Positions 54,987-63,896 of a stretch of 64,000 nucleotides of DNA are shown piece by piece. The notes under the pieces are model-generated. The model worked only from the letters and a program-made list of their open reading frames with translations. It was not told where the DNA came from and made no database searches. Numbering within the stretch: position 1 is the first letter of the stretch; every line of letters begins with the position of its first letter. Made by a program: the position numbers and the translations under genes. This DNA comes from an uncultured Spirochaetota bacterium (GTDB lineage Bacteria; Spirochaetota; Spirochaetia; SZUA-6; Fen-1364): positions 2,976,001-3,040,000 of the forward strand of contig CAWGAA010000001.1 in the NCBI GenBank assembly GCA_963820525.1, in the 5' to 3' direction.

Positions 54987-56345
54987 ATGGCGCATCCCGT
55001 GAGCGACAGCATCTCCAGGCGATTGGACGATCTTCCCCTGGGCGGTTTCCACCGCAGGCTCCTTGTCGTGAGCGGGCTCGGGTGGATGTTCGACGCGCTG
55101 GACGTCGGTCTCATCGGCTTCGTTCTGGCGGCGCTGGTGGGGGAGTGGAAGCTGCACCCGCAGCAGGTGGGGCTCATCAGCAGCGCGGGATTCGCGGGAA
55201 TGTTCGCCGGAGCGCTGATCGCGGGTCTCCTCGCGGACCGATTCGGACGTAAGCCCCTGTTCCAGGCCACGATGCTCGTCTACAGCCTCGCGACGGGCCT
55301 CTGCGCTCTTGCCGGAGGCCTGGCCTCCCTCCTCGGCCTTCGGTTCCTGGTCGGACTCGGACTCGGGGGAGAGCTTCCCGTGGCGAGCACCCTGGTGAGC
55401 GAGCTTTCCCCGGCTCGTCGAAGAGGCCTCATGATAGTGCTCCTGGAGAGCTTCTGGGCATACGGGTGGGTCATCGCCGCGCTCATCGGCTACCTGGTCA
55501 TCCCCCGTTTCGGCTGGCGCGTTGCATTCCTGATCGGAGCGCTTCCGGCCCTGTACGTGCTTCTTCTCAGGCGGGGCATTCCCGAATCGCCCCGCTTCCT
55601 TGCGGGAAGGGGAAGGCGTGAAGAAGCCGAGCGGGTGGTCCGGCAGGTCGAAGGAGACCGTCGTGAGGCGACCGCGAAGTCGCGCGTCAAATCCTCAGAG
55701 CCACCCGCGGAGCGCGGCAGGTGGAGAGAGCTCTTCAGCCGGCCCTACATCCGGAGGACCGTGATGCTCTGGGTTCTGTGGTTCGGGATCGTGTTCTCGT
55801 ACTATGGGATCTTCACCTGGCTGCCCAGCATCCTTCGCGCCCGGTTCCCCCTGGTCACGAGCTTCGAGTACACGCTGATCATCACTCTGGCCCAGATACC
55901 CGGATATTTCAGCGCGGCATTCCTCGTGGAGCGTTGGGGCCGTAAGATCACCCTGACGGTCTATCTCCTTGCCTGCGCCGTCGGCGCCTATCTCTTCCGG
56001 CAGGCCGGAAGCCCCGCGATGATCCTGCTCTGGGGCTCGGTCATCTCCTTCTTTAACCTCGGCGCCTGGGGCGTCGTCTACACGTACACCCCGGAGTTAT
56101 ACCCGACCGGGATCAGGGGCAGTGGTGCCGGATCCGCGGCGGCATTCGGACGCATCGGAGGAATCATTGGACCCTACGTGGTCGGCCTTCTCCTGCCCAC
56201 CTGGGGAGCGGGAATAGGGGCTATATTCGCAATGTTCGCGGCCGTGTTTCTCGTCATTGCGGCGGTTGTTTTCATCCTGGGGGAGGAAACCCGCGGGGCG
56301 AGCCTTGAAAAGATCGCGATGAAAAAGAATCCCGTAAGCACTTGA
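54987..56345 (+). CDS. MFS transporter (YceI/NiaP-like)
   Basis: GWMFDALD, LADRFGRK, GLGLGGELPVA, PESPRFL and YTPELYPT motifs. Confidence 0.93.
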   Translation: MAHPVSDSISRRLDDLPLGGFHRRLLVVSGLGWMFDALDVGLIGFVLAALVGEWKLHPQQVGLISSAGFAGMFAGALIAGLLADRFGRKPLFQATMLVYSLATGLCALAGGLASLLGLRFLVGLGLGGELPVASTLVSELSPARRRGLMIVLLESFWAYGWVIAALIGYLVIPRFGWRVAFLIGALPALYVLLLRRGIPESPRFLAGRGRREEAERVVRQVEGDRREATAKSRVKSSEPPAERGRWRELFSRPYIRRTVMLWVLWFGIVFSYYGIFTWLPSILRARFPLVTSFEYTLIITLAQIPGYFSAAFLVERWGRKITLTVYLLACAVGAYLFRQAGSPAMILLWGSVISFFNLGAWGVVYTYTPELYPTGIRGSGAGSAAAFGRIGGIIGPYVVGLLLPTWGAGIGAIFAMFAAVFLVIAAVVFILGEETRGASLEKIAMKKNPVST

Positions 56346-56370
56346 CAAGAGAGGATTGTTTTATTATTCT
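56342..56370 (+). promoter_or_regulatory. Sigma70 promoter, probably producing a leaderless arsR mRNA
   Basis: TTGACA 56342-56347, 17-nt spacer, TATTCT 56365-56370; GTG start 6 nt downstream. Confidence 0.65.
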
Positions 56371-56376
56371 ATAACC

Positions 56377-56664
56377 GTGAAACTAACCGAGCGGGTGAAG
56401 ATCTTCAAGGCTCTCGCCTGCGAGCAGAGGATCCAGCTCCTGCAGCTTCTCAAGCAATGGGAAGGCCTGGACGCCTGTTGTGACGGGGTTTTGAAGGCAT
56501 TCACCAAGGCGAGCGAGGAGCTCAGTATTTCCCGCTCCACGCTTTCGCATCATTTCAAGGAGCTCGAGAATGCTGGCCTCATTGTCTGCCATCGAAATGG
56601 GCAGGCCATGGCGTGCAAGATCAACGAGGACGCGATCCGGGAGGTCCAGGAGTTCATGAAGTAA
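56377..56664 (+). CDS. ArsR/SmtB-family regulator, Cys-rich
   Basis: IFKALA.EQRIQLL and ELSISRSTLSHHFKELENAGLI motifs; five Cys including vicinal CC. Confidence 0.92.
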   Translation: MKLTERVKIFKALACEQRIQLLQLLKQWEGLDACCDGVLKAFTKASEELSISRSTLSHHFKELENAGLIVCHRNGQAMACKINEDAIREVQEFMK

Positions 56665-56733
56665 GGGTGTCGTTTTTTTTTCTGAGAATTGTTCGACAGT
56701 TGTAGTATTCTAAACATCAGAAAGGATAAAACA

Positions 56734-58122
56734 ATGATTCGATCAGATCAAGGACAAGACTCAGGCGGCTCAACAAAGCCCCTTTCGGATTTTCGCTGGG
56801 GCGTGGAGCGCGAGACGCATCGTGTGCTTCCTGACGGCTCCATCAGCCTCTCCGCCCACCCCGAAGCCCTCTCGAAGCCGGGTTTCACCCGTGATTTTGC
56901 CGAAAGCCAGCTCGAGATCGTGACCGCTCCAAAAACCAGCATCCCAAAGGCGCTCGCGGATCTCGAGCATCTCACTGCAGAGGCCGATCGCGCCCTCGGC
57001 CAGGAGCTTCTCTGGCCCTTCAGCATGCCGCCAAGGCTTCCAGAGGAATCGCGGATCCCCATCGCAAGGTTTGGAACTGGAGAATGGGCGCGCCGTGCAG
57101 AGCTCTACAGGCTGGGGCTCGCTTCCCGCTATGGAAAAGCCAGGCAGATGATCTGTGGGGTACATCTCAACGTCTCCTTCGGGGAGGCGCTCCTGAGCCG
57201 AATGTCGGCCGAATCCCCCCTTACCCCGGAGGAGGCGCGAAGCGGCCGACCTTCAGACGGGTATGCCCTGCGGCTCGCAAGAAATCTCTACGAGCAGCTT
57301 CCCCTGTTGATTCTGCTCTTGGGCGCTTCACCGCTCATGGGAGGCGTGGACGAGACCGAGGAGCTCTACGCGGTTTCCTACCGCAACAGCCGGTTCGGCT
57401 ATGCGGGAAGCGAGTACCGCCCCTACCTGGATCTCCAGTCATTCCCGTCCTATCTCTCGGGGATCCGCAAAGGAATGAGGACGGAGTCTCCCGCATTCAA
57501 GTCTCTCGGTCTGGTCCAGGACGGCCGGGCAACCCAGCTCAACGGCATGATCTTCCAGTCTGAAAAGGAGTTCTACGCTCCCATTCGCCTGAGGCAGCGC
57601 CTCCTGCCCGGCGAATCCACCCTTCAAGCTCTCTCCAAGCGGGGCGTGGGGTACCTCGAGCTTCGGTTCCTGGATGTGGACCCCTTTGCCGGAACAGGGG
57701 TGAGCGAGGAGACGCTCCGGCTCATCCATCTTTTTATCCTGGACGGATTGGCAAGACCAACCCAGCCACGCGGACGAGAGGCCCTAGGCGAAGATCTATC
57801 CCGGGCTACCGACGCCGCCCTGAAGAATCCGCTCCAGCTGATCGCATCCGCCGGCTCCGACCTTCTCCTTCGAGCGGCGGATGAACGGCTGGCCGATCTC
57901 GATTCCTGGGCCAGGCGGCTGAACGAGGAGACGTGGGACGATACCTACACGGCCGTGCTCGAACTGTTCAGACGGAGGATCTGCGATCCGCGCCTTCTCA
58001 CCTCGGCGGCTCTCATCCGGGCTTTCGAGAAGAGCGGCTTGGACTGGTCCTCTTTCGGCGTTCAAACGGCAGTCGAACACAGGCAAGGAGCTGAACATGA
58101 ACTGGAATACGCCAGGCTTTAA
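56734..58122 (+). CDS. gshA: Glutamate-cysteine ligase (GshA domain of the GshF type)
   Basis: GVERETHRV, TRDFAESQLEIVT, LWPFSMPP, RYG...QMICGVHLN.S, S.RNSRFGY, EKEFYAPIR and GVGYLELRFLD motifs. Confidence 0.9.
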   Translation: MIRSDQGQDSGGSTKPLSDFRWGVERETHRVLPDGSISLSAHPEALSKPGFTRDFAESQLEIVTAPKTSIPKALADLEHLTAEADRALGQELLWPFSMPPRLPEESRIPIARFGTGEWARRAELYRLGLASRYGKARQMICGVHLNVSFGEALLSRMSAESPLTPEEARSGRPSDGYALRLARNLYEQLPLLILLLGASPLMGGVDETEELYAVSYRNSRFGYAGSEYRPYLDLQSFPSYLSGIRKGMRTESPAFKSLGLVQDGRATQLNGMIFQSEKEFYAPIRLRQRLLPGESTLQALSKRGVGYLELRFLDVDPFAGTGVSEETLRLIHLFILDGLARPTQPRGREALGEDLSRATDAALKNPLQLIASAGSDLLLRAADERLADLDSWARRLNEETWDDTYTAVLELFRRRICDPRLLTSAALIRAFEKSGLDWSSFGVQTAVEHRQGAEHELEYARL

Positions 58123-59092
58123 GGGATTCGAGCTGTCCACTCAGCTCGTGATAAAGGAGGCGCTCCAGCGCGGCCACGCCGTCGAGGTGTTGGACCCGAA
58201 GTCGAACTTCATCCGCATCACGGGCAACGGCAAGACGGAGTATATCCGGCAGGCCACCAGGACATCGGCGGATACCTATGTGAGCTCTCTCATCATGGAG
58301 AACAAGAAGGTCACCAAGACGGTTCTCAAGGAAGCGGGGATTCGGGTGCCGACGGGAAAGGACTACGCGGACATCGGCGAGGTTATAAGAGATTTCGGGC
58401 TGTGGAAGGGCAGGGATACGGTGATAAAGCCCAACACGACAAACTTCGGCAAAGCGGTCTCCATCCTCATCGCCCCGTTCAACGAGGAGGAGTACCTCCA
58501 TGCGGCCAGGAGCGCGTTCGCGGAAGACGAGGTTATCCTGGCGGAGGAGTTCATCCCGGGAAAGGAATACCGGTTCCTCGTCATTGGCGGGGCGGTCCGG
58601 GCTGTCCTCCACAGGGTCCCGGCCAACGTCACGGGAGACGGCATCAAGACGATCGCCCAGCTCATTGCCGAGAAAAACTCCAACCCACTTCGGGGAAAGG
58701 GCTATACGAGCCCCCTGGAAAAGCTCCGCGCGGGAGCCGAGGAGGAGGAGTATCTCCGCGCCCAGAGGCTTTCATTCGAATCGGTTCCCGACGCGGGGCG
58801 TACGGTGTTCTTGCGCAAGAACTCCAACATCAGTACGGGAGGCGACAGCATCGACTTCACAGACGACGTTCACCCCGGATACAAGGACATCGCTGCCGCG
58901 GCGGCCGCGTCGGTCGGGGCCCTCATCTGCGGAGTCGACATGATGGTGCGGGACGTGACGGCAGAGCCCACCGGGGACAACTACGGCGTGATCGAGCTGA
59001 ACTTCAACCCGGCCCTCCACATCCACGATTTTCCTTACAAGGGAAAGAACCGCGGCGTGGAGAAGCACGTGCTGGATCTCCTGGATTTGTGA
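58097..59092 (+). CDS. ATP-grasp ligase equivalent to the GshF C-terminal glutathione synthetase domain
   Basis: ELSTQ, QATRTSADTYVS.LIMENK.VTK, IKPNTTNFG, EYRFLV, R.PANVTGDG, NSNISTGGDSID and IELNFNP motifs; has its own AAGGAG SD. Confidence 0.9.
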   Translation: MNWNTPGFKGFELSTQLVIKEALQRGHAVEVLDPKSNFIRITGNGKTEYIRQATRTSADTYVSSLIMENKKVTKTVLKEAGIRVPTGKDYADIGEVIRDFGLWKGRDTVIKPNTTNFGKAVSILIAPFNEEEYLHAARSAFAEDEVILAEEFIPGKEYRFLVIGGAVRAVLHRVPANVTGDGIKTIAQLIAEKNSNPLRGKGYTSPLEKLRAGAEEEEYLRAQRLSFESVPDAGRTVFLRKNSNISTGGDSIDFTDDVHPGYKDIAAAAAASVGALICGVDMMVRDVTAEPTGDNYGVIELNFNPALHIHDFPYKGKNRGVEKHVLDLLDL

Positions 59093-59099
59093 GGCGGCC

Positions 59100-60032
59100 A
59101 TGCTGAGTATTCACGGATTGACGAAAAGCTATAAAACCTCAACCGAGCCCGCCTTGGCATCCGTCGGATTCGACGTGCAAAGGGGAGAGTTCCTGGCGCT
59201 CCTGGGCCCCAACGGCGCGGGCAAGTCCACGCTGATCGACATCCTCTCCGGGAGGGTGGACGCGGATTCGGGAACCATCCGTATCGATGGGGAGGAGCTC
59301 AAGGCGGGCAGGCCGGACCTCCGTGCGATGATCGGGACAGTGCCCCAGGAGATCCGCTTCGACTACGTGTTCACGGTCGAGGAGCTTCTCCGCCTGGAGA
59401 GGGGGTTCTACGGGCTCCGCAGGGACGACGCCCACATCCGCTACCTCCTGGAAAGACTTTCGCTTGCCGATAAGAGGCGCGTGCGCGTTCGAGCCCTTTC
59501 CGGAGGGATGAAGCGCAGGCTCATGATCGCCAGGGCTCTGGTTCACAAGCCGCGCCTCCTGCTCCTTGACGAGCCGACCGCCGGAGTAGACCTCCAGCTC
59601 CGGCTGGACATGTACAGCTTCCTTCGGGAGCTTTCCGCGGGCGGGCTGACGATCATCCTGACAACACACTACCTGGAGGAGGCGGAGCAGCTCTGCGGCC
59701 GGATCGTCGTCCTGGACAGGGGGCGGCTGGTGGCGAACGAATCGCGGGACGCATTCCTGAAGATGGGCGGAGATTCCCTCACCGTGGAGATCAAGACGGG
59801 CGCCCAAGAGAAGATCCGGGCCCTTTTCGAAGCTGATGGAGCCCTGCAAGTGACGGGCGGCCATGACGGCCTGAAGTTCGTGTTTCCCGAATCCTCCCGC
59901 ATGTCCCTGCTACGGACCCTCTCGATTGCAGCCCCGCATATCGAATCTTTTCAGATCAGAAAACCGAAGCTGGAGGAGGTTTTCGTGAAGCTCACCGGCA
60001 GGAAGGAGGCTTCGGATGTCCCTGTCCTCTGA
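59100..60032 (+). CDS. ABC exporter ATP-binding protein (YadG-like)
   Basis: GPNGAGKST, LSGGMKRR, LLDEPTAGVD and TTHYLEEAE motifs. Confidence 0.94.
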   Translation: MLSIHGLTKSYKTSTEPALASVGFDVQRGEFLALLGPNGAGKSTLIDILSGRVDADSGTIRIDGEELKAGRPDLRAMIGTVPQEIRFDYVFTVEELLRLERGFYGLRRDDAHIRYLLERLSLADKRRVRVRALSGGMKRRLMIARALVHKPRLLLLDEPTAGVDLQLRLDMYSFLRELSAGGLTIILTTHYLEEAEQLCGRIVVLDRGRLVANESRDAFLKMGGDSLTVEIKTGAQEKIRALFEADGALQVTGGHDGLKFVFPESSRMSLLRTLSIAAPHIESFQIRKPKLEEVFVKLTGRKEASDVPVL

Positions 60033-60807
60033 TATGTCCTTCAGCCGCTGGATTGCCTTCTTCACGCTTCTCAAGCGTGAGGTGATGAGGTACATGAAGC
60101 TCGCCGTCCAGACCGTGGTGGGCCCGTTTCTGTCCAACCTCTTCTTTCTCGCGGTGTTCGGCGGTCTCCTGTCCGCCCGTTCCAGCGGCCTGGAGGGAGT
60201 TCCCTATGTCAGGCTCCTGGTTCCCGGCCTGATCTTCATGGGCGCTTTTCTCTCCTCGTTCCAGAATCCCGTGTTCTCGCTCATCTCCATGAAATACCAG
60301 AACACCCTGCAGGATCTCTGCCAATATCCGCTCTCGGCGGTATCCCGCTTCCTCGCCTTTTCTTTTGCAGGCGCCCTTCGGGGGCTCCTGGTCGGGGGAA
60401 TGACATACGCGGCAGCAGGCCTTTTCGCCGGCTATGCCATCCACAACCCCCTGCTGTTCTGGGCCTACATCGCCTCCGTCTCTTTCATAGGGGCGACGGG
60501 GGGCATCGCGGCCGGGCTGTACCTCGATTCCTTCGAGAAGGCGAACTTCATCGTGGGCCTCGTCCTCACTCCGGCCCTTTACCTGAGCGGCGTGTTCTAC
60601 TACCCCGACGGCGCCACTTCGTGGCTGGGCATCCTGGCCCGCTACAATCCCCTCACCTTTCTGGTTGGTGCGGGTCGGAATCTCTTTCTGGGCGTCGGCG
60701 CGCTGGGAGGTCCCGTGACCATCCTGCTGGCCGGCGTCTTCTGCGCGGCGCTGGTGGCGCTTTCAGCAGCGGCGATCCTTTCCGGCAAGGGAATGAAGAT
60801 AGAGTGA
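60016..60807 (+). CDS. ABC-2 type exporter permease (YadH-like)
   Basis: KREVMRY, QT..P, Y...LVPGLI.M, LSGVFY and NPL motifs; about 6 TMs; AGGAGG SD. Confidence 0.9.
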   Translation: MSLSSDMSFSRWIAFFTLLKREVMRYMKLAVQTVVGPFLSNLFFLAVFGGLLSARSSGLEGVPYVRLLVPGLIFMGAFLSSFQNPVFSLISMKYQNTLQDLCQYPLSAVSRFLAFSFAGALRGLLVGGMTYAAAGLFAGYAIHNPLLFWAYIASVSFIGATGGIAAGLYLDSFEKANFIVGLVLTPALYLSGVFYYPDGATSWLGILARYNPLTFLVGAGRNLFLGVGALGGPVTILLAGVFCAALVALSAAAILSGKGMKIE

Positions 60808-60823
60808 TGAAAGGGGGAATTCG

Positions 60824-61468
60824 ATGAAAGAGATCGAGTTCGGCGTCGGGGCCTGTCCTTTCCCGACGGGCGCGAACAGGGGACCCGTCCGGCGCTATAT
60901 CCGCGGTATCGCGTGCTCGCTGATGAGGGTGGCCTTTTTTCCTGCCGATGTCATGACCATTTGGAGGAAGGATCCGGCGCTCCACGGCAGACCGCTCGCG
61001 TTCCTGGAGGTGCCGCTCTACGCTTCGTTCTGGGCGATGCTTTTCCACAGGGTGGCCCATCCGCTGCATTCCATCGGCGTGCCGTTCCTGCCGCGCCTCT
61101 TGAGCCAGATCGCACGATTCCTTACCGGGATCGAGATCCACCCCGGGGCGGTCATCGGAGCCGGCCTGTTCATCGACCACGGCATGGGGGTTGTGATCGG
61201 GGAGACCGCCATCGTCGGCGATGAAGTGCTCCTGTTCCATGGGGTGACGCTGGGCGGCGTTGACGCGCGGCCGGGCCGCCGCCATCCCCTCGTGGGAAGC
61301 AGGGTCGTCGTCGGCGCCGGGGCGAAGGTGCTGGGCGCGATCACGATCGGAGAGGGGGCGAAGATCGGCGCCCAATCCGTGGTCCTGGCGGACGTTCCGG
61401 CGGGGGCCACCGCCGTCGGGATTCCCGCGAGAGTGCTCCAGAAGCAGGGATTGGAGAAGGCGGTATAA
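60824..61468 (+). CDS. cysE: Serine O-acetyltransferase
   Basis: KDPA, HRVAH, TGIEIHPGA.IG...FIDHGMGVVIGETA, GVTLGG and RRHP motifs with hexapeptide repeats. Confidence 0.92.
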   Translation: MKEIEFGVGACPFPTGANRGPVRRYIRGIACSLMRVAFFPADVMTIWRKDPALHGRPLAFLEVPLYASFWAMLFHRVAHPLHSIGVPFLPRLLSQIARFLTGIEIHPGAVIGAGLFIDHGMGVVIGETAIVGDEVLLFHGVTLGGVDARPGRRHPLVGSRVVVGAGAKVLGAITIGEGAKIGAQSVVLADVPAGATAVGIPARVLQKQGLEKAV

Positions 61469-61547: not shown

Positions 61548-63896
61548 CTATTTGAAGCTGTAGCCCTTTTCAGTGAAGAGCTTCACGCACGTGTCGACGA
61601 CATCGGAATCGTAGAGAACGGCCTTGTTCCTGCCGATTTCCTTCAGGGCCTCTTCAACCCCGACGGCGGGCCGGTACGGCCGGTGCGATGCCATCGCTTC
61701 CACAACGTCAGCCACGGCGAGAATCTTCGACTCGAGCCGCATCTGCTCCCCGGTAAGGCCCTGCGGGTAGCCCGAGCCGTCGAGCCTTTCGTGGTGCTGA
61801 TACACGATGTCGGCCAGCGGCCAGGGAAAGTCGATCGTCTTGAGGATGTCGTAGGCCACCTGGGGGTGGATCTTGATCAGGTTGAACTCCACAGGGAGGA
61901 GCTTTCCCGGCTTGTTGAGGATCTCCGAGGGGACGTAGATCTTGCCCAGGTCGTGCACGATGGAAGCCAGTCGAATTCCCTCGATTATTTCCTTGGGAAG
62001 CCCCATCTCGGTGCCGATCGTGCGGGCCAGGTCGGCAACCCGACGCTGATGCCCGGCCGTGTACGGGTCTCTCGCCTCGACCGTCTTGGAGAGGGTCTCG
62101 ATCATGCCCCCCATGACCTTGCGCAACTCGGAGAGCTGCCGCGTCTGCGCCCTCAGGTGATCTGTCTGGGCCTGCAGCTGGCTGAACATCATCGCGCCCT
62201 GCAGGCGCGCGCTGATGACCCTGCGCAGCTCTCCGTAAAGCCTCCCCTTGCGCTCCTTCAGCTCGAAGAGGGCGTAGCCGATGTCGTTCTGGTGATAGAG
62301 GGCCTCGACAATGAAAGCGAACCGCCGATCCGCGGGGAGGAAACCGTCGGCAGCGATGGAAAGCGAGGGAAACTCCGCCGCGTAGCTTTCCGGCGGGAGC
62401 ACCCCGTCCTTCTGCATGACGAAAATCGGTCTCGCCCTGTCGGGGGTGCCTTCGTAGCGGCAGATGAAGCAGGAATGAATCGCCAGCCGCGGAAGAGCCC
62501 AGGAGAGGGTCTCGAGGACCCTGCGCTCGTCGAACACGTCGATCAGCTCCTCGTTGACCGTGTGAAGCACCCAGAACTCATGGACGTAGCTCTCGACGCT
62601 CCTGTTTTCCTCGGCCTTCGCCCGCTCGGCAGTGAGGATGCGGGCCTGCTGGAAGAACACCTCCGCCTTCTGCCGCATCGCCTCGGTTGAAATCAGGCCC
62701 TGCCGATATGACTCGGTCCGAAGCTCCGATACGAGCCTGTTTGCGGACGTGAAAAGACCTCCCGGCCATCTGATGCCGTCCATGAGGCCGCTCCAGGCCA
62801 GCATCATCGATGTGTCGATGGTCCCGGCGGCCAGATACCCTTCAAAACGCTCGATCAGCTCGCCGATCTTCTTTTTTGCGCCGGAATCTCCATCCGACAT
62901 CCCCAGGCGCGTGATGATCGCCTGGGCCAGCCGGCTCCCGGCCTTGGCATTCTCCGCTCCGTCCGGCGCGGGGCGAAGGGCCGGATGCGCCGCGGCAACC
63001 TCCATGACCTCGTCCGAAAAGCACCCGCAGGATTCCCTGACGATCAGTTGAGGCGAAAAAACGGTCTTGTTCGGCAGGCCTTTGCCTTCGATGAGATCCA
63101 GAAGCAGCTCCACCGAGCATTCACCCTGCTTCCGGAAGGATTGGCTCACCGTGGTGAGCGGCGGGGAGGAGTACTTGCTGGCATCCGTATTGTCGAAGCC
63201 CGTGATCGCGATATCCGCGGGAACTCTCTTTCCCATTTCCCGCAGGGCCTGGATGGCCCCCAGGGCCATGTCGTCATTGGCCGCCATGAGCGCGTCGAAT
63301 TGTACCTTCCTCTCGTTGACGAGGGTGTAGGCGGCCGAAGCGCCGGATTCCGCCATGAAATCCCCATTCACGACGAGAGCATCGTCCAACTCGATTCCGG
63401 CTTCTTTCAATGCGTCGACGTACGTGGAGTATCGCTCCCCGGCGTCGTGATTGTTCTCAGGGCCGCCGATGAAGGCGATCTTTTTCAGGCCGTGAAACCT
63501 TGCGAGGTGGAGCACCAGATCGCGTATCCCCTTGCGATTGTCCGTGAAGAGCGATGGAATGCCGTCCAGCTCGTAAGAGATGCTGAAAACAGGCATGGGC
63601 AGGAATTGCTGGCAGAACTTCTCCGTTTCCTTCTGTCCGGCGTGATGGCACAGGGAGCCGGTCAGGATGATGAGGCCGTCCACCAAGGGGCTTGAAGCGA
63701 AGCGGTAGATGAGGTTGTTGTGCGTTTCGTAGGTTTTGGCGGAGCCGATTCCTCCCCCTTCGAAGACGAGGAGATTGACATCCCTTTCTTCAGCTTTCGA
63801 GATGATGCCGTCGAGGATGCTCTGCTGGTAAGGGCCGTCAAGCCAATCGACGATGAATCCGACCGTCGCCCGTTTTGTCTGCCCCTTCGCCTTCAA
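61548..63896 (-). CDS. LacI-type ligand-binding domain plus HD-GYP phosphodiesterase
   Basis: IAFIGGP, AANDDMALG, RVPADIAITGFD and PPLTTV; then ARDPYTAGHQRRV, HDLGK, HHERLDGSGYP and VADVVEAM..HRPYR; start uncertain. Confidence 0.92.
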   Translation of the reverse strand: MKAKGQTKRATVGFIVDWLDGPYQQSILDGIISKAEERDVNLLVFEGGGIGSAKTYETHNNLIYRFASSPLVDGLIILTGSLCHHAGQKETEKFCQQFLPMPVFSISYELDGIPSLFTDNRKGIRDLVLHLARFHGLKKIAFIGGPENNHDAGERYSTYVDALKEAGIELDDALVVNGDFMAESGASAAYTLVNERKVQFDALMAANDDMALGAIQALREMGKRVPADIAITGFDNTDASKYSSPPLTTVSQSFRKQGECSVELLLDLIEGKGLPNKTVFSPQLIVRESCGCFSDEVMEVAAAHPALRPAPDGAENAKAGSRLAQAIITRLGMSDGDSGAKKKIGELIERFEGYLAAGTIDTSMMLAWSGLMDGIRWPGGLFTSANRLVSELRTESYRQGLISTEAMRQKAEVFFQQARILTAERAKAEENRSVESYVHEFWVLHTVNEELIDVFDERRVLETLSWALPRLAIHSCFICRYEGTPDRARPIFVMQKDGVLPPESYAAEFPSLSIAADGFLPADRRFAFIVEALYHQNDIGYALFELKERKGRLYGELRRVISARLQGAMMFSQLQAQTDHLRAQTRQLSELRKVMGGMIETLSKTVEARDPYTAGHQRRVADLARTIGTEMGLPKEIIEGIRLASIVHDLGKIYVPSEILNKPGKLLPVEFNLIKIHPQVAYDILKTIDFPWPLADIVYQHHERLDGSGYPQGLTGEQMRLESKILAVADVVEAMASHRPYRPAVGVEEALKEIGRNKAVLYDSDVVDTCVKLFTEKGYSFK

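Follow-up and report, generated by a model that had tools for sequence, protein, structure and literature searches.

The six co-oriented genes at positions 56342-61468 of the window (the whole 64,000-nucleotide stretch of DNA from an uncultured Spirochaetota bacterium analysed here) raise the question of why an ArsR/SmtB-family repressor should head genes for glutathione synthesis, an ABC-2 transporter and cysteine supply. A sequence-only reading had answered that they form an inducible detoxification module that makes glutathione and secretes it, or its metal(loid) conjugates. This interpretation was supported in part: the gene identities, the layout and the association of arsR with the two glutathione genes stood, whereas the ABC pair and cysE proved to be accessories. 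The best explanation, which we consider to have an even chance of being right, is that the six genes are a self-contained, self-regulated thiol module that has spread horizontally. A literature search found no published description of an arsR-gshA-ATP-grasp-ABC-cysE operon.

An ORF check placed all six ORFs on the forward strand at the positions first reported (Table 1), and the identities given to them held in profile searches and, for the ATP-grasp protein, in a structure-database match. A 69-nt gap separates arsR from gshA; from gshA onward the genes are as tightly packed as had been described, each junction overlapping or spanning less than 20 nt (a 26-nt overlap of gshA with the ATP-grasp gene, a 7-nt gap to the ABC ATPase gene, a 17-nt overlap of the ATPase and permease genes and a 16-nt gap to cysE). 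The likelier gshA start is preceded by AAAGGA 7 nt upstream, and the start Met of the ATP-grasp protein is invariant in alignment A1. The operon is taken to end with cysE because the next downstream gene (61548-63896) is convergent.

Table 1. Genes and regulatory elements of the operon, in window coordinates.
Feature	Position	Strand	Description
arsR promoter	56342-56370	+	-35 TTGACA 56342-56347, 17-nt spacer, -10 TATTCT 56365-56370
arsR	56377 (GTG, likelier) or 56356 (TTG) to 56664	+	ArsR/SmtB-family repressor; 95 aa from GTG, 102 aa from TTG
arsR-gshA intergenic element	56673-56715	+	nine-T run 56673-56681, then TGTTCGA-type box 56687-56715
gshA (GCL)	ATG 56734 (likelier) or TTG 56689, to 58122	+	type-1 glutamate-cysteine ligase
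ATP-grasp gene	58097-59092	+	stand-alone C-terminal half of split GshF
ABC ATPase gene	59100-60032	+	DrrA/NodI/YadG type
ABC-2 permease gene	60016-60807	+	YadH-like
cysE	60824-61468	+	short-form serine O-acetyltransferase (CysE/EpsC type)

Conservation of the locus and its regulatory elements

The operon was compared with 101 related loci, ArsR being counted where a homologue of at least 85 bits was encoded directly upstream. ArsR was present in 25 of the 35 assessable split loci, in which the glutamate-cysteine ligase (GCL) and the ATP-grasp ligase are separate genes, vs 0/48 assessable fused gshF loci. The ABC pair and CysE were absent from fused loci (0/47 and 0/44, respectively) and occurred in 7/49 and 11/49 non-fused loci; among the 28 split loci for which 2.8 kb or more of downstream sequence was available, two had the pair, nine had cysE and 19 had neither. 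Split forms lay on one side of the ATP-grasp tree (45 rows, SH-aLRT 89) and fused forms on the other, and the ABC-bearing loci were scattered over it with eight changes and no clustering. The exact six-gene order of the window was found again in three loci (L094, L058 and G256), and a search of 40 relatives of the host did not turn up the cluster. Among 401 sampled genomes of the phylum, the assessable ArsR homologues of at least 48% identity numbered five, all of which adjoined a GCL. The arsR-gshA-ATP-grasp association is no chance neighbourhood. This core of the gene set put forward by the sequence-only reading proved strongly conserved, and the full order was upheld in the three loci; the ABC pair and cysE, which had been expected to accompany it, are recurrent accessories of split loci and not universal parts.

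The promoter that had been placed ahead of arsR was borne out by conservation and not by its scan score. In a scan of 7.2 kb, TTGACA-17-TATTCT was the sole match, one found vs 1.4 expected and so not above chance, but the promoter is considered real because its -35 and -10 elements are conserved at a fixed distance from the start codon in arsR homologues. In a comparison of 26 rows (the window and 25 loci), TANNNT ending 6 nt upstream of the arsR start was found in 26/26 and TTGAC at -35/-34 in 24/26. Since the -10 ends 6 nt before GTG 56377, a leaderless arsR mRNA is implied. A palindrome (GTTY-N10-RAAC) lies across the -10 in 18/26 rows and is degenerate in the window. A GTWCKA box occurs no more than 260 nt past the arsR stop in all 26 rows, GTWC-N10-RAAY in the arsR-gshA region in 23 (the window not among them) and a T-run after arsR in 19; no hairpin was found ahead of the T-run in the intergenic element, and an Rfam search of this element gave no match. 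The TGTTCGA-type box before gshA may act as a second operator or as an internal promoter. The conserved leaderless promoter, the overlapping palindrome and this second box agree with the view of ArsR as the leading gene and probable controller of the operon, although both operator copies of the window are degenerate and neither fits the palindrome pattern, which counts against the best explanation.

Signal, pump and product

Judged from sequence, the operon may best be read as an inducible unit for glutathione synthesis and thiol export, with an even chance of this being so. ArsR, translated from a leaderless transcript, would occupy the palindromic operator on its own -10 and the second box before gshA, until a thiol-reactive signal engaged its Cys cluster (the CC between alpha2 and alpha3 and the two wing Cys), released the repressor and turned the operon on. 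Among such signals a soft metal or metalloid is favoured (As(III), Sb(III) or Cd(II), for example), with oxidant, disulfide or persulfide stress almost as likely. By homology, the extra serine acetyltransferase would raise the supply of cysteine, the GCL would form gamma-Glu-Cys and the GshF-type ATP-grasp ligase would add glycine to give glutathione. The ABC-2 ATPase and permease would then carry glutathione, GSSG or a glutathione adduct out across the cytoplasmic membrane, a role in thiol export to which their gene neighbourhood points.

ArsR scored 31.8 bits against PF01022 and 52.8 bits against NF033788 (cut-off 55). It is as Cys-rich as the sequence-only reading had it, with the vicinal CC of a DACCDG motif in an inserted alpha2-alpha3 loop and three more Cys, one in alpha2 and one on each beta-wing strand. 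In an AlphaFold2 model (pLDDT 90.6), the CC is predicted to lie in the loop just ahead of a short strand running into alpha3, and the best fold match of the model was 6J05, an As(III)-responsive ArsR (TM 0.81, 22% identity). Among 49 close homologues, conservation reaches at least 90% at C34, C35, C71 and C80, and the wing Cys is invariant in 27/27 ArsR sequences. In the subfamily as a whole one Cys is invariant and the others vary in position, and on these grounds no one defined metal site can be assigned. This pattern resembles that of one-Cys and two-Cys redox sensors and lends some credit to a different regulator, with rather less than an even chance of being correct: a redox or thiol-homeostasis switch in which a wing Cys disulfide, S-glutathionylation by GSSG or persulfidation would free the DNA, the operon would set the glutathione pool and reduced thiol would reach the periplasm or the outside through the pump. 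Such a switch would fit the finding that neither ars nor metal-efflux genes regularly adjoin these loci, and the ties of a distant pump in the spirochaete family f27 (see below) to grx, gst, ggt and a disulfide reductase, not to metal genes. An ArsR paralogue in genus g112 adjoins a DsbD/CcdA-type thiol-disulfide membrane protein, an arrangement also in keeping with it. However, known As(III) sites in other ArsR proteins combine a vicinal Cys pair with a third Cys, the fold match is likewise to an As(III)-responsive protein, and the host is a poor fit to a recycling redox buffer, there being no glutathione reductase above cut-off in its genome (two lipoamide dehydrogenases are present). No GGT or GST was recognisable there either, whereas glutaredoxin-like and GPx-like genes are present. 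Without reductase, GGT and GST, glutathione would be a consumable rather than a recycled thiol in this host, which we count in favour of the self-regulated thiol module.

The ABC ATPase, which has a DrrA-like C-terminal domain, matched PF00005 (125.4 bits) and TIGR01188 (217.5 bits, under the cut-off of 312). The permease matched PF01061 (71 bits) and, as its best curated model, the YadH-type NF011648 (137.7 bits, under the cut-off of 225); it fell under the cut-off of every curated subfamily, and a PDB sequence search gave no match at E<=1. The pair is presumed to be an exporter because no substrate-binding protein gene is adjacent. The ATPase has orthologues (42-67% identity) at the corresponding place in L031, L036, L058, L069, L094, L097, L100, G256 and G437, and the full pair (40-65% permease identity) is present in all of these except L069 and L097, where the ATPase gene alone is visible and the contig ends. 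The pair could instead be a YadGH- or DrrAB-like general efflux pump with no thiol substrate, a repeated hitch-hiker beside genes that make glutathione for intracellular use only. This seems unlikely to us, although most split loci lack the pair, its loci are scattered on the ATP-grasp tree and the permease scores under every curated subfamily cut-off. In genus g142, moreover, three genomes (90-96% complete) carry an equally similar pair (41% permease identity) adjoining signalling genes, and searches throughout these genomes gave no GshF-type ligase. The closest family with a name, that of E. coli YadGH, is reported as a macrolide efflux pump in the abstract of PMC13462070. A literature search found no glutathione link for YadGH. 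Against a hitch-hiker stand the constant slot of the pair directly after the ATP-grasp gene in genomes of Bacillota, Fidelibacterota and Spirochaetota and in metagenome contigs, the presence in the host of the pair together with the gsh genes when neither was found in 40 relatives (best permease match 30% identity, no orthologue), and a separate, more distant ABC-2 pair inside the f27 glutathione gene island.

The two glutathione-synthesis enzymes of the proposed module were each found in a single copy in the genome. The GCL scored 283.6 bits against PF04262, 224 bits against TIGR01434 (under the cut-off of 393) and 210 bits against the GshF model NF002688, matched over its N-terminal half. 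The ATP-grasp protein by itself covered positions 424-751 of NF002688 with 446.7 bits, above the cut-off of 425 for the full model, matched PF18419 (77 bits) and aligned to residues 427-752 of the 757-residue gshAB protein 3ln7_A (E 1.3e-83). That this enzyme adds a substrate other than glycine, or that gamma-Glu-Cys is the end product, so that the exported thiol is not glutathione, is improbable: it could draw on an ATP-grasp specificity assigned from sequence, on lower-scoring matches of the fold to cyanophycin synthetase and other ligases and on the GCL score under equivalog cut-offs, but is opposed by the full-model score, by the match to the synthetase half of solved gshAB proteins and by a 48%-identical split homologue in the f27 island, the gene content of which probably links it to an L. 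interrogans locus with reported GS activity. CysE (TIGR01172, 207.5 bits, cut-off 210.65; NF041874, 207.3 bits, cut-off 150) is a second copy in the genome, the other being a 326-aa protein encoded on contig C2 (42% identity).

Comparison with known systems

The two synthetic enzymes share their modules, a type-1 GCL and a D-Ala-D-Ala-ligase-like ATP-grasp synthetase, with GshF/GshAB of Listeria, Streptococcus and Pasteurella (PDB 3ln6, 3ln7). GshF/GshAB is one polypeptide, whereas the window has two overlapping genes, and ArsR, ABC and CysE partners were found with split forms only.

The window ArsR has the winged-helix ArsR/SmtB fold of the As(III)-responsive ArsR proteins (AfArsR, 6J05; R773 ArsR) and of CzrA/SmtB and, like these, is a small Cys-bearing repressor encoded first in its operon, with a palindromic box overlapping the promoter. 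It differs in an insertion of some ten residues between alpha2 and alpha3, which bears the CC, in carrying Cys on both wing strands, in the implied leaderless mRNA and in the genes it would regulate, which are for glutathione synthesis and not ars or metal efflux. The CzrA chains of known structure exceed it by about ten residues, with the alignment ending near residue 84 of the window protein, and alpha5-site ligands appear to be absent from that protein as judged by eye. An alpha3 CXC motif was likewise not apparent where the alignment would place it.

A split GCL and GshF-type ATP-grasp enzyme (48% identity) also lie within a few kb of an ABC-2 ATPase (41%) and permease (27%) in f27, a large spirochaete family, in an island with ggt, gshA, the ATP-grasp gene, grx, bolA, gst and a disulfide reductase gene. 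The f27 island has neither ArsR nor cysE, and its pump, with a distantly related permease, is convergent to the synthetase genes amid grx, bolA, gst, rhodanese and disulfide reductase genes. Its gene content matches LIMLP_08950-09000 of L. interrogans (listed in PMC10294975 and PMC8638967), a relative with split enzymes in whose lysates GCL and GS activities were measured according to passages of the review PMC10294975; the reviews consulted make no mention of the pump.

As in E. coli YadGH, DrrAB and NodIJ, the window pump consists of an ATPase and a six-helix-type ABC-2 permease encoded by two genes with no binding protein, differing in scores that lie under the curated cut-offs. The likeness to eukaryotic GS-X pumps drawn by the sequence-only reading holds in the proposed functional sense only. 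GS-X pumps (ABCC/MRP, Ycf1) and E. coli CydDC, the bacterial glutathione exporter cited in the reference list of PMC11719327, would share the job of ATP-driven export of glutathione or its adducts, but are ABC_membrane (PF00664) full or half transporters, whereas in the window the ATPase is separate from the permease, which is of the ABC-2 (PF01061) and not the ABCC type. The window pump, analogous to these transporters rather than a member of their family, is a candidate bacterial glutathione exporter.

Composition of the arsR-led glutathione operon

Six co-oriented ORFs were called in the operon, encoding an ArsR-family regulator (95 or 102 aa, depending on the start), a glutamate-cysteine ligase (GCL, the gshA product), an ATP-grasp ligase (331 aa), an ABC ATPase, an ABC-2 permease and a serine acetyltransferase (CysE, 214 aa). 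A 69-nt spacer leads from arsR to the likely gshA ATG, gshA overlaps the ATP-grasp gene by 26 nt, 7 nt separate the latter from the ATPase gene, the ATPase and permease genes overlap by 17 nt, and 16 nt lie before cysE. The next gene downstream is convergent, so that the unit ends at cysE. Its 782-aa product combines a LacI-type periplasmic-binding-like sugar-sensor domain, without HTH, with an HD-GYP (HD_5) domain and is possibly a sugar-responsive c-di-GMP phosphodiesterase. The sequence-only reading had described the operon correctly in each detail checked.

Family assignments are given in the table. The GCL match spans profile positions 11–354 of 372, i.e. a full-length Glu_cys_ligase domain, with scores under the equivalog cut-offs (TIGR01434, 224 vs 393 bits), and CysE, just under the TIGR01172 cut-off (207.5 vs 210.65 bits), reached equivalog level via NF041874. 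The ATP-grasp protein is a GshF-type C-terminal module and not of the classical GshB type (NF002688; PF18419, 77 bits), and it matched the synthetase half of the solved gshAB structures 3ln7 (E 1e-83) and 3ln6 (E 1e-76). Whereas GshF (bifunctional GshAB) is one polypeptide, the window carries its two halves as overlapping ORFs in different frames. The ABC pair consists of an ABC2_membrane permease and a separate ABC ATPase, with no binding-protein ORF in the operon. Curated ABC cut-offs were not reached for YadH (NF011648, 137.7 vs 225 bits), DrrA (TIGR01188, 217.5 vs 312.45 bits), NodI (175–184 vs 424–549 bits) or NodJ (28.7 vs 206 bits), and the permease gave no sequence match to any solved structure at E ≤ 1.

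Coordinates of the operon, its promoter elements and related features, with the profile match of each operon protein
Feature	Location	Profile	Score (bits)	Cut-off (bits)
Operon	window 56342-61468 (+)
-35 element, TTGACA	window 56342
-10 element, TATTCT	window 56365-56370
GTG start codon	window 56377
Half-box, TGTTCGA	window 56690
Likely gshA ATG	window 56734
ArsR		PF01022	31.8	22
GCL		PF04262	283.6	27
ATP-grasp ligase		NF002688 (GshF), positions 424-751	446.7	425
ABC ATPase		PF00005	125.4	25
ABC-2 permease		PF01061	71	26.9
CysE		NF041874 (EpsC-type SAT)	207.3	150
782-aa LacI-type/HD-GYP protein	window 61548-63896 (-)
Best glutaredoxin-domain match in the host genome	G000:C1:3047018-3047197
Second ArsR, transporter and rhodanese-domain protein	L019 2796-5947
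Two half-transporters	L101 3055-6551 (-)
Reductase and transposase after the six-gene cluster (genome G256)	L161 10869-13118
f27 island, L163	G424:C1:1852000-1871000
f27 island, L164	G111:C1:1891000-1910000

A conserved core with optional parts

Loci with ATP-grasp relatives were collected from species genomes (80, the best 80 of 600 pattern-matched stretches) and from metagenome contigs scanned with query-specific patterns (22), the locus counts being those of a sample; ORFs were called in each locus and compared with the six window proteins, and related loci are not independent of each other. An ATP-grasp ORF was present in 101 loci, 52 with a fused gshF gene, 42 with GCL and ATP-grasp in separate genes as in the window (“split”) and 7 without a detectable adjacent GCL, one of them (L100) cut by a contig end. 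An ArsR homologue (at least 85 bits) lay directly upstream in 25 of the 35 assessable split loci and in none of the 48 assessable fused loci, and fused loci also had neither the ABC pair (0/47) nor cysE (0/44). The ten assessable split loci without ArsR came from Opitutales (four), Epulonipiscium (two) and others (four). In the reverse direction, all five assessable ArsR homologues of at least 48% identity in a 401-genome phylum sample adjoined a GCL, and weaker homologues (38–46% identity) did not. The synteny expected by the sequence-only reading, which had proposed an inducible make-chelate-export detoxification operon, was borne out for arsR, gshA and the ATP-grasp gene and only in a minority of loci for the remaining genes: of the 28 split loci whose downstream sequence spans 2.8 kb or more, 2 had the ABC pair, 9 had cysE and 19 had neither, so that both are minority accessories. 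Genes flanking the cluster had nothing in common in 18 loci examined and gave no hint of a signal. The unit behaves as a self-contained module, in which arsR, gshA and the ATP-grasp gene form the fixed core while the ABC pair and cysE are optional. The split form of GshF is probably ancestral.

The ABC pair comes after the ATP-grasp gene in Clostridia MAGs (L031, L069), in Fidelibacterota (L036) and Spirochaetota (L058), in metagenome contigs L094, L097 and L100 and in genomes G256 and G437, only the ATPase gene being visible before the contig end in L069 and L097. cysE lies downstream in L015, L017, L035, L058, L094, L096, L100, L101, L102 and G256, and between arsR and gshA in L021 and L076. 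L094, L058 and G256 show the complete window arrangement of six genes, and L100, cut by its contig end, is compatible with it. Protein match lists hinted at further co-location, in at least 14 cases for ArsR and at least 8 for the permease, which was not counted as evidence. Near the gshA/ATP-grasp/cysE cluster of L101, which lacks the ABC-2 pair, two half-transporters (586 and 578 aa; ABC_membrane plus ABC_tran) with a CydDC-like architecture may be an alternative exporter. Five Eubacteriaceae loci (L027, L030, L053, L054 and L075, the last with two copies 3.4 kb apart) have a stand-alone GshF-type ATP-grasp gene with no type-1 GCL detectable alongside, and its partner ligase may be of another type. 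A split gshA/ATP-grasp pair labelled as from a Methanobacteriota archaeon MAG (L048) was nested among Bacillota sequences on the tree and could reflect a mis-binned contig or a transfer.

Three observations point to horizontal acquisition of the operon by the host. The G+C content is 0.57–0.58 over arsR and the start of gshA vs 0.60–0.65 around; a quick IQ-TREE phylogeny of the ATP-grasp protein placed the window in a clade of 11 (SH-aLRT 99) that includes a Treponema MAG and metagenome contigs, copies from other spirochaetes lying elsewhere on the tree; and no orthologue of the ATP-grasp gene or the permease was found in 40 relatives (24 of the same family and 16 of the same order, several genomes being incomplete). 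An empty-site comparison was uninformative on insertion, the flanking MFS gene being present in only 2 of 24 relatives, in neighbourhoods not syntenic with the window. Downstream of the six genes in genome G256 come an FMN-dependent reductase (Flavodoxin_2) and a DDE transposase, an arrangement that fits mobility.

The host genome (5.05 Mb, 96.7% complete) has no copies of GCL and the GshF-type ligase other than those found in the operon, a second, longer CysE elsewhere, two GPx-family genes, one ArsC-family ORF and four glutaredoxin-domain matches, the best of them ~10 kb past the operon and barely beyond the window edge. A search of this genome recognised no glutathione reductase (the two best disulfide reductases are lipoamide dehydrogenases), no GGT and no GST, for which the sole match was a glutaredoxin ORF. 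A cell that synthesises glutathione and shows no dedicated enzymes for its recycling or breakdown is more in keeping with a thiol that is consumed or exported than with a redox buffer that cycles. The agreement is weak, since in Leptospira, according to PMC10294975, reductase activity is present although the gene is not annotated.

Promoter architecture and the ArsR sensor

Upstream DNA was aligned for 26 arsR genes, that of the window and those of 25 loci, leaving out L097, whose 5′ end is missing. TTGAC occurred at -35/-34 relative to the start codon in 24 genes, a TANNNT hexamer ended exactly 6 nt 5′ of the start codon in all 26, and a GTTY-N10-RAAC palindrome lay across the -10 in 18. With the -10 so near the start codon, a leaderless mRNA is predicted. 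On the 3′ side of the arsR stop codon, a T-run was seen in 19/26 and a GTWCKA box, at most 260 nt away, in 26/26; in 23 of these the box lies within a GTWC-N10-RAAY palindrome of the same type as that of the promoter, which suggests that the box before gshA may be a second operator or an internal promoter. The window has intact -35 and -10 elements and degenerate copies of both palindromes, of which only a TGTTCGA half-box is clear. As a terminator the T-run was rejected, the RNA before it folding no better than shuffles (z +1.9); a terminator scan found none after arsR in the window, and the T-run there is not a terminator because no hairpin lies 5′ of it. A riboswitch or leader RNA was likewise rejected, with no Rfam match in 56150–56850 at E ≤ 1. 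Control of the operon by ArsR is likely.

The AlphaFold2 model of ArsR (pLDDT 90.6) has the helix order α1-α2-α3-αR-β1-β2-α5 of an ArsR/SmtB winged helix-turn-helix protein. The best Foldseek hit was 6J05, an As(III)-responsive ArsR (TM 0.81, 22% identity), followed by CzrA (TM 0.72), SmtB, CadC, HlyU and SqrR. The sequence fell narrowly under the NCBIfam metalloregulator cut-off (NF033788, 52.8 vs 55 bits), which is consistent with a divergent ArsR subfamily. Canonical ArsR/SmtB sensing sites are a CXC or CXXC motif in α3, or His/Asp/Glu residues in α5. In an alignment with CzrA, the window protein has about 10 extra residues between α2 and α3 that carry a vicinal CC pair; in the model this loop runs into a two-residue strand directly before α3, each wing strand holds one Cys and the protein ends shortly after a short α5. 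Among 49 close homologues, conservation reaches at least 90% for the CC pair and for both wing Cys; across the wider subfamily the second wing Cys alone is invariant (27/27), and in the Bacillota branch the Cys have shifted into α3.

A putative cluster of three to four thiols close to the wing that contacts DNA would fit a soft metal(loid) site, the As(III) site pattern of other ArsRs being a vicinal Cys pair plus a third Cys. The same arrangement would also fit a thiol-disulfide or S-thiolation switch, by which ArsR would serve redox homeostasis and not metal sensing, an alternative that concerns the signal only. No ars or metal genes were consistent neighbours in the 18 loci examined. A metal(loid) signal is tentatively placed slightly ahead of a redox signal, which is possible but somewhat doubtful. 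One locus (L019) has, directly upstream of its arsR-gshA cluster, another ArsR that is unrelated, a transporter of the SBF/ACR3 type and a rhodanese-domain protein resembling CoA-disulfide reductase, the sole arsenic- or sulfur-flavoured neighbourhood among the loci examined. In genus g112, a Cys-rich ArsR paralogue (38–46% identity; L184-L186) lies away from gsh genes and, in L184, adjoins a DsbD_TM/CcdA-type thiol-disulfide membrane protein and two ORFs without a Pfam match.

The ABC-2 pump and comparison with known systems

In the gsh-linked loci, drawn from three named phyla and from metagenome contigs, the ABC pair keeps a fixed slot with tight spacing. A phylum-wide permease search revealed a second, independent architecture in the large spirochaete family f27, in which a more distant ABC-2 pair (ATPase ~40%, permease 25–30% identity) is present in 73 of 75 sampled genomes. 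In two of these genomes the pair lies between bolA/gst/grx genes and rhodanese plus disulfide reductase genes, convergent to ggt, gshA and the ATP-grasp gene, in the order ggt, gshA, ATP-grasp facing grx, grx, bolA, gst, bolA, ABC-2 permease, ABC ATPase, rhodanese (UPF0176) and disulfide reductase (L163 and L164). Among the 24 permease loci (one of them from a family other than f27) listed after the five close orthologues, 14 had an ATP-grasp gene within the 1.5-kb flank; in G424, outside the 14, it lies 2.4 kb from the pump. The gene content of the island appears to match that given for L. interrogans LIMLP_08950-09000 in passages of PMC10294975 and PMC8638967, which do not mention its pump.

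An alternative is a pump that hitch-hikes with the cluster as an unrelated efflux system. In genus g142, three genomes carry a pump that resembles the window's as closely as the gsh-linked ones do (48% identity for the ATPase, 41% for the permease), and no GshF-type ligase was found anywhere in these genomes; in L159 and L160 its neighbours encode a LUD-domain protein and, for signalling, a response regulator and a hybrid PAS/GAF histidine kinase. Loci with the ABC pair are spread over the quick ATP-grasp tree (8 changes), and YadGH, a named relative of the pump, is reported to export macrolides in the abstract of PMC13462070. Against such hitch-hiking stand the constancy of slot and spacing, the joint absence of pump and ATP-grasp gene from the 40 host relatives and the second ABC-2/glutathione architecture in f27, and it is considered unlikely. 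A thiol substrate for the pump is given slightly less than an even chance.

From homology and gene neighbourhood, the operon may work as follows: the ArsR repressor would keep it off until a thiol-reactive signal frees the repressor, CysE, GCL and the ATP-grasp ligase would then raise cysteine, γ-Glu-Cys and glutathione, respectively, and the ABC-2 pump would send out glutathione or an adduct. The chances of this scheme as a whole are about even. Its synthesis half is very likely, homology predicting γ-Glu-Cys-Gly as the product, and a product other than glutathione is improbable. More speculatively, and at somewhat less than even odds, the ABC-2 pair could be a dedicated bacterial exporter of glutathione or glutathione-metal(loid) complexes, a GS-X counterpart on another fold, with the Cys-cluster ArsR as a new sensor class setting synthesis and export upon thiol-reactive stress and a diverged lineage of the pump serving the f27 island.

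Transcriptional control of bacterial glutathione synthesis and the exit of glutathione from the cytoplasm are both poorly known, and the module offers clonable candidates: a repressor-operator pair for glutathione genes, a split GshF and a two-gene pump genetically tied to glutathione. It occurs in lineages not classically seen as glutathione producers (Clostridia-type Bacillota, Spirochaetota and Fidelibacterota), its closest named homologues being in Holophaga and Geothrix, and because it moves horizontally it could underlie the patchy thiol chemistry and metal(loid) tolerance of sediments and guts. Its enzymes are of possible interest for glutathione production, since GshF is reported not to be feedback-inhibited (PMC10295655).

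Every part of the operon belongs to a known family, and it is not a new kind of system. A literature search with most subscription journals outside its reach turned up neither a glutathione operon led by an ArsR nor an ABC-2 exporter of glutathione. Within that scope, what is new is a putative ArsR-subfamily regulator devoted to glutathione genes, with a conserved, predicted leaderless promoter and candidate operators, the restriction of regulator, pump and cysE to split gshF, and the recurrent genetic link, in two architectures, between an ABC-2 pump and glutathione genes. Earlier papers may have described split gshF genes as such, possibly Gopal et al. 2005. The exporter usually cited for bacterial glutathione is E. 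coli CydDC (as in PMC11719327). GS-X pumps (ABCC/MRP), to which the sequence-only reading had likened the operon, and CydDC have the ABC_membrane domain PF00664, whereas the window permease matches PF01061 and PF12698 only. CydDC has been reassigned to haem transport by recent structural work. The likeness of the window pump to GS-X pumps and CydDC would be one of functional analogy only.
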